A DNA stretch of 64,000 nucleotides from Cladosporium halotolerans (lineage: Eukaryota): assembly GCF_011745625.1 (NCBI RefSeq), contig NW_027191457.1, positions 496,001 to 560,000 on the forward strand. The letters are read 5' to 3'. Each line of letters begins with the position of its first letter. Positions within the stretch are counted from its first letter, which is position 1. The notes beneath the pieces were generated by a model. The model did not search any database. It was not told where the DNA came from and worked only from the letters and a program-made list of their open reading frames with translations. Both the position numbers and the translations under genes were made by a program. This document shows positions 37,064 to 64,000 of the stretch, piece by piece.

Positions 37064-39072
37064 ATGTCTCACAACATGGCAAAGGCCCCTTGCGATACCG
37101 ACCTCGACCTGGGCACCGAAGACTCGCCTATGGCCTACAAGGTCGGGACTGCAATAGATCAACATGACATGCGACGTGTCGGCAAAGCGCAAGAACTGAG
37201 GGTTGGCACACGGTTATACTCAACAACAGCACCCTCATGCTAATTGCTGCCCACAGCGCAACTTCCGTCTGATCTCAGTGATCGGTTTTACGGCAGTCTT
37301 GATGTGCACATGGGAAGCTGTTTTATTGTGAGTGTTCGATTCCCATTCAAGAAAAGGATCATCGAGATTGACGACACACGAAGCACAGCCAGTTACATCT
37401 TGCCCAATGGAGGGCTCGCGGGAATGGTATGGATGTATCTAGTGTCGCTCTTCGGCTTCTCGTTTGCCATCCTATCCATGGCAGAAATGGCCAGCATGTG
37501 AGTTTTCTTCAATTCGAACTTTTCGGCGATCATGCTGACTTGGCCAGGGCTCCTACGTCAGGTGGACAATATCGGTTTGTCGAGCTGAGCCAATGGATTG
37601 AAGAGACATGCTAATATTGATAGTACGTTTCGACTCCTCTTTGTGCACCCCGATCCGTCTTGAGACAGACTCAACACCACTCGATGTTAGGGCTTTTTGT
37701 TGCCACAAGAAGCGCGCACTAATATTTAAAACACAACAGACTGGGTATCAGAGTTCTCGCCCGCCAGGGCTCAAAAATTCCTATCATATATCACAGGCTG
37801 GCTCTGTGTTCTTGGTTGGCAAGTAAACATTGGCGGTATCTCAACCATTCATCCCATCCAAATCGTTCATTCACTTATATTCTGACCTAGCTGGATGTTA
37901 TCTCGTAGCCACGCAACTCCAGGGCATCATCAAGCTCAACGACTCAGAATACACAGCGCAGCCATGGCACGTTACCGTTATGATCATTGTGGTGGCTGCC
38001 GTCGCTATCCTCTTCAACACGTTCTTCGCGAAGAAGCTTCCGCTCATCGAAGGCTTCATCTTGATCATTCACGTCTTCGGCTTCTTCGGTATTCTGGTAC
38101 CCCTGTGGGCTCTCGCCCCACGACAATCGGCAAAGGCAGTCTTCACTCAGTTCCAGAATGCATACGCTTGGCCCTCTCAAGGACTCGGTTGCCTTGTGGG
38201 AATAAGCGGTCCTATGTACGCTCTGATCGGTCCAGACTCGGCTGTGCACATGGCTGAAGAGATCAAAGATGCTTCTCGCGTGCTTCCGCTTGGCATGATA
38301 TGGACCCTCATCGTCAACGGGCTGACTGGATTCATCATGGTCATCACCTTTGCTTTCTGCATCGGTAACTTGGAAGGCGCTCTGGCGCCGACGTACGATT
38401 ACGCATACATCGATGCCTTCTACATCGCCACCAACAACAAAGCCGGCGCAACGATAATGGCGTGTCTGATCATCCTGATGTGCATGTGCAGCACGATCAG
38501 CAACGTCGCCACGGCTTCACGTCAAATGTTCGCGTTCGCGCGCGACAAAGGGATGCCCTTCAGCAAGTTTCTGTGCCAGTAAATAACCGCATACTCGAAA
38601 TCATGACACACACGAGACGCTGACCCGATTCTGCAGCGTCCGAGCCGGATGGGACATCCCGCTCAATGCCGTTCTGATCTCTTTCGTGATCACAAGTCTC
38701 CTCTCTCTGATCAATCTTGGGAGCAAAGATGCCTTCAACGCCATCCTTTCACTCGCGGTCGGAGCCATTTTGAGCTCCTACATCATCTCAATCTCATGCG
38801 TGGCAATACGCAAAATCAGAGGCGATCCGCTCCCACATGCACGCTGGAGCCTAGGGCGAGCGGGTCTGGCCTGCAACATCATTGCGGTGGCGTTTCTGTT
38901 GTTGGTCTACGCCTTCTCGTTCTTTCCCTTGGCACCAAACCCAGAGCCAGTAACCATGAATTGGGCCTCTCTTTTGTATGGCTCTGTGGTTTTGTTTTCC
39001 ATTTTTTATTATTTACTCTTCGGGCGACATGCATATGAAGGGCCCGTGGTTCTGGTCAACAAGGAGCTGTAA
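37064..39072 (+). CDS. APC-family amino acid (GABA/choline-type) permease; five standard introns plus one stwintron
   Basis: Spliced QELR|RNFRLISVIGF..WE..|GGLAG..SMAEMASM|APTSGGQY|HWVSEFSP..GW..LGWQ..GPDSAVHMAEEIKDA..ASRQMFAFARDKGMPFS..WSLG..MNWA. Confidence 0.93.
37574..37739 (+). other. [D1,2] spliceosomal twin intron (stwintron)
   Basis: TATC|G[GTTTGT...GCTAAT ATTGATAG]TACGT...ACTAAT...CAG|AC TGG. The internal intron 37575-37623 splits the external donor G/TACGT. Confidence 0.85.
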
Positions 39073-61323: not shown

Positions 61324-64000
61324 ATGGCACCCACATCGCGCCCTGACTACAAGCTGAACCTCGAAGGGCTGCCTCAGCTCAATATGGGCGGTACTAGGTC
61401 GGCCAATGGTTCCGCTACCAACTCGCCCATCGAGCCTGCCGGTTCAGGCTTGCGATATCCCCTTGGTAATGGCCTCGGATCTGCAGGCTCTCAGCTTGGC
61501 TCTGGAAGAGCAGGAGCCGGATCTCCCTCAAAAGAGTACGGTAGCCGGTTGTTCCCGAAGCGGTAAGTATTCACCGAGTAGCAGTCCATGAGAGGTATTC
61601 GCCTAACAGCTTTTCAGCGCACGCGAGATCCAAGCCCAGGAAGGCATTTCTCCATCGCTATGGGGCCCGCCGCCTGCAGGCAGCGGCCATTCCACGCCTT
61701 TGCGCGAAATCATCCCCGAATCGCCAGGCAGCGACAGTTTCCCCGACTTTGATGCGGATACCGCGCAAACAGGATTTGCGCCTTCGAGCCAGGGAGCTGC
61801 CAACTCGACTCGGCGTGGGCGCGCCGGCACGGTGCCCTCGCGCTTCCCTCCAATTGGCTCACTAAACGGACTGGGTGGTTCCCAGCCATCGTCTCGGCCT
61901 GCGAGCTCTCAAAACACCCCACCGGGCAGCGTGTATGGATCGGCTACACCATACACGGACTCGCAAGCTACGGCAGGAGCCTCCAATGCAAGCAGCCAGG
62001 CGCTGCTGTCCCGCCTTAGAGCAGGCTCGATGCCGCAGCGGAGTAATCTCATGGGCGGGGGGAGCCCTTTTGGTTCCTCCTTGTTCGCTAGTAACTGGAT
62101 GGCGGGAAGAGATAGAGCGAGCACACTGCAGAGCATCAGGTCCTCTGATGGACCCTCCTCGCCCCGTGATTCGCCTGCGGATAATGACGTGCGTACCTTG
62201 GATTATCTGGGTCTCGTCGATACTCCTCAGCAATCAAGAGGAGGTCTGACGCAAGCGGAAGCCAACATCCTCGCGAGCCAACAGCGTCAAAGGGGCAACT
62301 CTGGCTTCAATGTTGCTGACATGGCTGCTCTCAACTCCTTTTCGAAGAACCCTGCGAACAGGTTCCGGTCTTATTCCGTCAACGCGAAGGAAAAGTATGC
62401 GGACGGTGAGGACGACGATGAGCTCACCGAGTATGAGCAACTTCAACAGATGTACGGTGCTGGCGGATCCATTCCCCAGTCAAGAGACGCGGCAGCTGCG
62501 CAGGCTGCGGCAATTCACGAGGCGGTCAGGCAGCACAACCTTGACGTCCAAGCCTTTGCCACATATGCCAGCTCTAACCGGCCCAGGGCTCGAACTGCTG
62601 GAGTTCTCGACTCTCCAGCAAACCGAACCCTTCGAAGCTACCTTCCCACGCCCTCGCGATTGGACAGTAGCATCAGCGCAGCGGATCTACAAGCTAATGA
62701 TGCCAACGACCTGAACGGTCTGACCAGTGCCGTCCAGGGCATGAATCTCGCGGGAAAGCCTTCCTATGACAGCGGCCTCGAAGCGCCGATGGAGTCGCCG
62801 ACTCGCTCGTTATGGCTCGGCAACATCCCGTCTTCAACTACCGTTTCTTCGTTGAACGTCATTTTCAGTCAATTCGGCGCTATTGAGTTCGCTCGCGTGC
62901 TCACTCACAAGAGCTGCGGCTTTGTCAATTTCGAGAACATCCAGAGCGCAATCACCGCCAAAGCTCAATGCAATGGCAAGGAAATATTCCCTGGTTGTGG
63001 TCCAATTCGCATCGGCTTTGCAAAAGAGCAGAGCGCTTCCAACACCCCCGGTGCCAACGGGATGTATCCCTCGCCCAGCCCGGATCCTTTTGTTGCCAAA
63101 GGAAACGCCGCTCCAGGTACAATCGGCCAAGCAAGCAACAACATCAACGCTGAGACTGCGGCCGCGGCGCTGGTCACGCCAGATTTGCTCCAGCTGCGCG
63201 AGGAGATCTCCACCATCGTATCCCAATTCGGCGCATCTGCAGAGGAGCAGACCAGAATCGATGGAAATCTTGAGAAGGCAATGAAGTTCGACGATTACGC
63301 GCCTGAAGTGCCTCCGATTGGCGAACCGAGTCATAACCGTGTGCATGATGCTCCCCGTTTGAGGGACATCCGCAAGCGAATCGACAACAACTCTTGCACT
63401 CCCATGGAAATCGAGGGCATCGCCATGGACATGCTGCCAGAAATTGCTGAGCTTTCATCGGACTATCTCGGAAACACCGTCGTTCAAAAGTTGTTTGAGC
63501 ACTGCAGTGAAGATACCAAGGAAGCTATGCTTGCAGAGATTGTACCGCATCTTGCTGAGATCGGCGTCCACAAGAACGGCACCTGGGCTGCTCAGAAGAT
63601 CATCGACGTTGCTCGTACACCCAAGCAGATGACTATGATTGCCGAGTCGCTCCAGCCACACGGTGTCAATCTTTTCCTTGACCAATATGGCAACTATGTC
63701 ATGCAGTGTTGCCTGCGTTTCCAGTCACCTCTCAACGACTTCATCTTCGAAACCATGCTTAACAGGCTCTGGAATGTGTCACAAGGAAGATTTGGTGCAC
63801 GTGCTATGAGAGCCTGTCTGGAAAGCCACTTTGCCACCAATGACCAGAAGAGACTCATGGCTGCAGCCATAACTTTGCACAGCGTTCAACTTGCAACCAA
63901 TTCGAACGGTGCCTTGCTTCTCACCTGGTTCTTGGACACTTGCACATTCCCGCGCAGACGATCTGTCCTGGCACCACGTCTGATTCCTCACTTGGTCCAC
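61324..64000 (+). CDS. JSN1: RRM + Pumilio-repeat RNA-binding protein, Jsn1/Puf2-like (3' truncated by window); intron 61563-61617
   Basis: Own translation: RRM SLWLGNIPSSTTVSSLNVIFSQFGAIEFARVLTHKSCGFVNF, then PUF repeats SSDYLGNTVVQKLFE, HKNGTWAAQKIID, DQYGNYVMQCCL, QGRFGARAMRACLE. Confidence 0.9.

Follow-up and report, generated by a model that had tools for sequence, protein, structure and literature searches.

A conserved nested-intron layout of the [D1,2] stwintron type in a permease gene of Cladosporium halotolerans

Described stwintrons and the permease locus

In animals, recursive splicing proceeds by one splicing event that restores a donor and another that makes use of it. The restored donor is situated entirely on the downstream side of the junction in these cases, and the introns are very long. 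In the permease gene described here, by contrast, a single upstream G completes the donor, and the two introns concerned measure 49 and 117 nt. Such a layout corresponds to the [D1,2] class of spliceosomal twin introns (stwintrons), for which PMC12403724, in the sections drawn upon here, provides the definition and the use of comparative analysis as validation.

The closest described elements are the [D1,2] stwintrons known from the Hypoxylaceae and Xylariaceae (PMC12403724, PMC9024468, PMC8469720). As far as the cited passages of these papers go, they have in common with the element at 37574-37739 of our window (the whole 64-kb stretch of DNA that was analysed) that the external donor is split between G1 and U2 by an internal U2 intron, that both introns are canonical and that one-step excision leaves a G behind and shifts the frame. 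The two cases differ in other respects. The host is a Dothideomycete here, related closely to the Teratosphaeriaceae (Mycosphaerellales), and the site is conserved across a clade rather than species-specific. Nor is the element of the 'sister' or internally symmetrical type known from the Xylariales, the copy search having covered the 64-kb window: no other sequence-similar copy was found within that window, near-terminal inverted repeats were not found in the element, there was no sign in it of terminal stems as described in Xylariales, and its RNA fold was ordinary (z = −0.83; 46 of 200 shuffles folded at least as well). A search of the window with a regular expression returned one other [D1,2]-like match, at 62121-62197 on the minus strand. 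It runs antisense to a long open frame of the plus strand (61607 to the end of the window) and was set aside as a chance match.

Conservation of position has a precedent in the lipS [D1,2] and bioDA [D2,3] stwintrons of Pezizomycotina (PMC5639578, cited in part), which, like the permease element, are found at one orthologous position through a clade. That relatives carry a standard intron or none at the site is a further likeness to the text cited. The permease is a different gene, however, and its ancestral canonical intron would be represented by a protein model (P0134, see below). According to the same portion of PMC5639578, the lipS stwintron is absent from Dothideomycetes. In the stwintron literature searched, a scope that leaves the founding 2013 paper and supplementary tables outside, the permease element was not reported. 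Within that literature, the words stwintron and permease occurred together in one review only, each of them once in the text available, and the stwintron papers that mention Dothideomycetes (PMC5639578 among them) concern other genes in the passages retrieved. The nested layout is a known but uncommon arrangement, of which the permease element would be a further case.

The permease gene and the anatomy of the element

The host gene lies on the plus strand at 37064-39072. In a model built on window coordinates it comprises seven exons and encodes 522 residues, with one terminal stop. Judged by the family match and by collinearity over its full length, the product is an amino-acid/choline-type permease of the APC superfamily. 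Pfam AA_permease_2 scored 96.8 bits in exon 6 (37891-38578, E = 1.8e-27) and 39.6 bits in exon 7 (38637-39072, stop codon included, E = 4e-10) against a cut-off of 27, and the 522-residue protein aligned end to end with proteins named by their sources as amino-acid transporter, choline transport protein or similar. Among named proteins, those of Meristemomyces frigidus, Elasticomyces elasticus and Friedmanniomyces simplex were closest, with 75-77% identity over exon 6; a taxonomy look-up placed the first two in the Teratosphaeriaceae (Mycosphaerellales, Dothideomycetes). All seven exons are open-framed, and exon 6 is 70-80% identical to its orthologues.

The exon boundaries rest on protein alignment and on contigs from four sequencing runs, of which one was RNA-like (X16, depth about 5), two were DNA-like (X17 and X2) and one covered 38158-38391 only (X18). 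Exon 1 (37064-37201) opens at the ATG and was aligned with orthologues P0002-P0004 and P0008. Exon 2 (37257-37327) was placed by protein alignment, and its donor after 37327 was used in an RNA-like X16 contig. For exon 3 (37384-37497), the protein alignment requires LFTASYILPNGG, and the frame-preserving acceptor AG lies at 37382-37383. Exon 4 (37548-37573) is a 26-nt microexon that ends in CAA TAT C and is kept in the orthologous locus L004. The first bases of exon 5 (37740-37835), AC TGG, complete a His codon; this exon agrees with the protein alignment and with an X16 joint of 37835 to 37891. Protein alignment and X16 contigs likewise cover exon 6, and the loose end of X16 contig 3 past 38578 is the start of exon 7. 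X16 contigs skip 37498-37547 and 37836-37890 and pass from 38578 into exon 7, with a depth near zero in those introns. This confirms three intron calls and also the microexon, which the preliminary description had proposed from the letters of the window and which the RNA-like joint of 37497 to 37548 now delimits. The five ordinary introns of the gene measure 50-58 nt.

The sixth interruption is of another kind. The conserved motif GGQYHWVSE demands that C37573 be joined to A37740, where the exon after the element opens with ACTGGGTATCAGAG, and only with that junction is the protein collinear with its Teratosphaeriaceae orthologues. Twelve of the 14 aligned homologues have ...MAPTSGGQYHWVSEF... 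(one with T for the first P); among the homologues, P0001 and P0005 represent gene calls that read through, and in P0009 the frame is shifted at the motif. The bases differ at both boundary flanks; therefore the junction between C37573 and A37740 cannot slide, and the removed segment is exactly 37574-37739, 166 nt long with GG as its first bases. Because it opens with GG, there is no in-frame GT-AG intron at this place.

The sequence supports the [D1,2] arrangement as the only canonical way in which GGQYHWVSE would be obtained, as had been proposed. G37574, on the plus strand as are all parts of the element, would be G1 of a split external donor. Directly behind it lies a 49-nt internal intron (37575-37623), of the same size class as the five ordinary introns. 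Its donor GTTTGT (37575-37580) deviates from GTRNGT at position 3, its branch GCTAAT occupies 37610-37615, with A37614 at 9 nt from the 3' end, and its acceptor TAG lies at 37621-37623. The remainder of the external intron (37624-37739) starts with TACGT (37624-37628) and carries the branch ACTAAT at 37718-37723, with A37722 at 17 nt from the 3' end, and the acceptor CAG at 37737-37739. Once the internal intron is gone, G37574 and TACGT make up GTACGT as the donor of an external intron of 117 nt (G37574 plus 37624-37739). For exon ends, donors, branches and acceptors, the preliminary description and the window sequence agreed at every base.

Each of the four structural and comparative marks of a [D1,2] stwintron was found at 37574-37739. 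Chance origin of the full architecture is excluded, as it was absent from all of 20000 shuffles in which the dinucleotides of the 166 nt were preserved; an internal branch, an acceptor and TRNGY at any place were found in 68 of 20000. Splicing in one step between the internal donor and the distal acceptor (37575-37739) would retain the G and shift the frame, and the translation of this product, which had been predicted to lose the reading frame, indeed stops after residue 270. The intermediate form and the fully retained form are each translated into a protein that stops after residue 129.

The preliminary description had considered that G37574 might be a sequence error, in which case the element would be a plain GT-AG intron. 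This explanation is refuted, and we assign it a negligible probability. The GG at 37574-37575 is genuine: two contigs from DNA-like runs of other strains, X17 record 6 (37399-38095) and X2 record 13 (37064-37675), cross 37574 with no indel listed there, those listed for X17 and X2 being at 37726 and 37727 only; an RNA-like X16 contig has this G as its last base; and the nine related loci from other assemblies read C-G-GT in every case. The G is also invariant in the nine aligned sequences.

Inside the element, strain X17 differs from the window by at least seven substitutions and one deletion, none of which, among those listed, falls in a signal position. We discounted this as evidence of constraint, zero hits being about 23% likely by chance according to our own arithmetic. 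In X2, record 14 matches 37451-37500 and 37736-37765, and 227 unrelated letters replace the 235 between them, which points to a second diverged copy or to a related organism in the sample. Sequence near-identical to 37064-39072 occurred in 20 of the 24 public runs listed. These runs come from 16 studies, with metagenomes of air, dust, soil and urban origin among them, and in most of the runs the word share was about 0.6. The species or close strains of it seem widespread.

Conservation of the layout and its probable origin

Metagenome contigs were scanned with the exon-6 alignment, which gave a comparative set of 20 loci. An intervening sequence exactly at the stwintron site was found in L002 (identical here to L003), L004, L005, L006, L007, L009, L012 and L020. 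L010, which is cut at its 5' side, contains the 3' half of the element only. Four loci (L011, L015, L017, L018) are without an intron and read GGQYHWVSEF contiguously, L008 has a canonical 56-nt intron 4 nt downstream of the site (between TG and G of CAT TGG), and the contigs of L001, L013, L014, L016 and L019 end short of the site.

The preliminary description had suggested following the pattern G[GT..AG]TRNGY through orthologous genes. It is kept in all eight distinct loci that span the site, and these loci, together with the 3' half present in L010, share the layout C-G-GT...CTRAY...YAG-TATGT...CTRAY...CAG-AC (hyphens mark boundaries), so that the [D1,2] reading extends to the relatives. 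The orthologous exon ends in TA(T/C) C, and a single G follows and then GT(A/G)NG(T/C), the internal donors in the relatives being GTACGT, GTGAGT, GTAAGT, GTGCGT or GTAGGC. The internal branch CT(A/G)A(C/T) lies 11 nt before (C/T)AG, after which comes TATGT; the external branch lies 13-17 nt before CAG, after which the exon resumes with AC TGG. Internal introns of the orthologues measure 50, 51, 51, 52, 119, 119, 119 and 234 nt and the external ones 89-97 nt. Outside the signals, intron sequence is poorly conserved (mean column identity 42%), and lengths diverge. The architecture itself and its conservation were both observed directly.

We had designated 28 splice-signal positions before the alignment was looked at. 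Across the nine aligned sequences, 24 of the 166 intronic columns are invariant, and 19 of these fall in the 28 signal positions and 5 among the remaining 138 (p = 5e-14, one-sided Fisher test). A pattern of this kind is what selection on two nested introns would predict, and it is not the one predicted for a single GG-AG intron. The latter would require one-step removal of the 166 nt as a non-canonical intron in which the internal signals are idle. The mature junction would be identical, and the fact that no intermediate was observed is in line with such a removal. It leaves unexplained, however, why the internal branch, the acceptor AG and TAYGT are invariant in nine sequences in which the surroundings diverge and the length varies from 49 to 234 nt. 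Nor, to our knowledge, does GG count among the recognised U2 donors. We consider removal as a GG-AG intron very unlikely.

The gene calls available from the stwintron clade (P0001, P0122, P0139) read through the intron. In P0005, the read-through suggests, from the protein alone, that a canonical intron lies 3 nt upstream of the site (CAA T-GT...CCAG-AC CAC TGG, hyphens as above). L008, which is 62% identical over exon 6, has no intron at the stwintron site itself. In the stretch L008:3730-3975, the downstream 56-nt intron has a weak donor, GTTATG, and a further intron interrupts the GG of TSGGQ. The annotated protein closest to L008 is P0009 from Saxophila tyrrhenica, in the model of which the frame shifts immediately behind GGQYR.

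For the exon-6 region, a maximum-likelihood tree was calculated from 41 rows; L017, L019 and L020, each with fewer than 180 matched residues, were not included. The stwintron loci confirmed on DNA that are in the tree all belong to a single group of 17 rows (ultrafast bootstrap 94, SH-aLRT 92). Its remaining rows, either truncated gene calls or a cut contig, do not show the state of the site. L015, without an intron at the site, is sister to this group, and three relatives at a greater distance likewise have none. This distribution fits a single origin in the ancestor of the stwintron clade, after which the element would have been kept.

Outside the group, protein P0134, filed under Quercus suber and evidently fungal, reads GGQY-RASH...VL-DWVSEF. 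This suggests, on the basis of the protein, a canonical 78-nt intron exactly at the stwintron site that is retained in frame in the model. If this reading is right, the intron position would predate the stwintron, and the internal intron would have been added to an existing donor, a route that the cited part of PMC12403724 describes for another gene. Five states of the site occur in close lineages: no intron, a canonical intron (suggested by P0134), the stwintron, an intron 3 nt upstream (suggested by P0005) and an intron 4 nt downstream (seen in the DNA of L008). One may speculate that an older canonical intron acquired a new intron between its G1 and U2 and that, in addition, this stretch is a hot spot of intron-position change. 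Taken jointly, we regard these two proposals as tentative and rather improbable. If the hot spot proved true, introns of these fungi could slide by way of the formation and resolution of stwintrons.

Proposed order of splicing and RNA-like contigs

For the order of the splicing events and for the intermediate we rely on the analogy with validated [D1,2] stwintrons. In a first step, a U2-type spliceosome would excise 37575-37623 (GUUUGU, A37614, UAG) and ligate G37574 to U37624. In a second step, the new donor GUACGU would be used with branch A37722 and the CAG at 37737-37739, and the 117-nt external intron would be released. C37573 would then be joined to A37740, and the His codon of GGQYHWVSE would be restored. 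We put the probability that 37574-37739 is a [D1,2] spliceosomal twin intron, removed by two consecutive canonical U2 reactions, the internal one before the external one, at roughly 0.88. The preliminary description took two-step splicing to be obligate, and a functional protein would require it. In other [D1,2] stwintrons, the event that retains one G is termed 'missplicing' (PMC12403724, in the part cited), and it is likely, by comparison with these, that some G-retaining missplicing of the permease element takes place as well.

The permease gene is transcribed in X16, and the introns neighbouring the element are spliced there. X16 contig 1, from which two introns have already been removed, ends exactly on G37574. 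This is the last base that unspliced RNA and the predicted intermediate have in common, and a de Bruijn assembly would be expected to break at this point if both were present. Because the depth is about 5, we take the position of this end as a hint only. There is no X16 coverage of 37575-37647. Contig 2 starts at 37648 and continues unspliced across 37739/37740 into exon 5, with 37648-37739 retained. Neither the mature junction of 37573 with 37740 nor the intermediate joint of 37574 with 37624 was present in the contigs of the four runs, one of them RNA-like at a depth of about 5. In the protein collection, none of the open reading frames that span the mature junction (GGQYHWVSEF) could be assigned to the stwintron clade; the best match to the corresponding segment of the window was P0224, which is 77% identical.

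The same RNA-like assembly shows further irregularities upstream of the element. Intron 1 (37202-37256) is kept in X16, and in the same contig 37327 is joined to 37389, so that the AG used lies 5 nt past the acceptor that would keep the frame; this shifts the frame and leads to a stop after residue 268. The X16 RNA gives no support for efficient productive splicing of the permease gene. One could think of an element that is mostly retained or mis-spliced, in a gene that is decaying or that is largely kept off by retention and frame-shifted transcripts. The retained 37648-37739 and intron 1, the frame-shifting acceptor at intron 2 and the missplicing documented for [D1,2] stwintrons (PMC12403724, in the passages at hand) would be in line with such a scenario. 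A decaying gene, however, is hard to reconcile with seven open-framed exons that are collinear with orthologues end to end and 70-80% identical over exon 6, and splice signals that are conserved clade-wide argue against a mostly unproductive element. Moreover, X16 is a single assembly with a depth of about 5, and contigs drop rare forms. We think it highly improbable that the element is mainly spliced unproductively and retain two-step removal of a [D1,2] stwintron as the preferred reading.

For specialists, the permease element will come as no surprise, and knowledge of the splicing mechanism is unchanged by it. For annotation it is of consequence, since standard gene finders cannot model stwintrons and would truncate, frame-shift or split the permease gene throughout this clade of black fungi that live on rocks and surfaces. 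A [D1,2] stwintron of conserved position is hereby added from the Dothideomycetes. It comes with an internal intron that ranges from 49 to 234 nt and with intron-less relatives to hand, and thereby provides a usable natural series for the gain and loss of nested introns.
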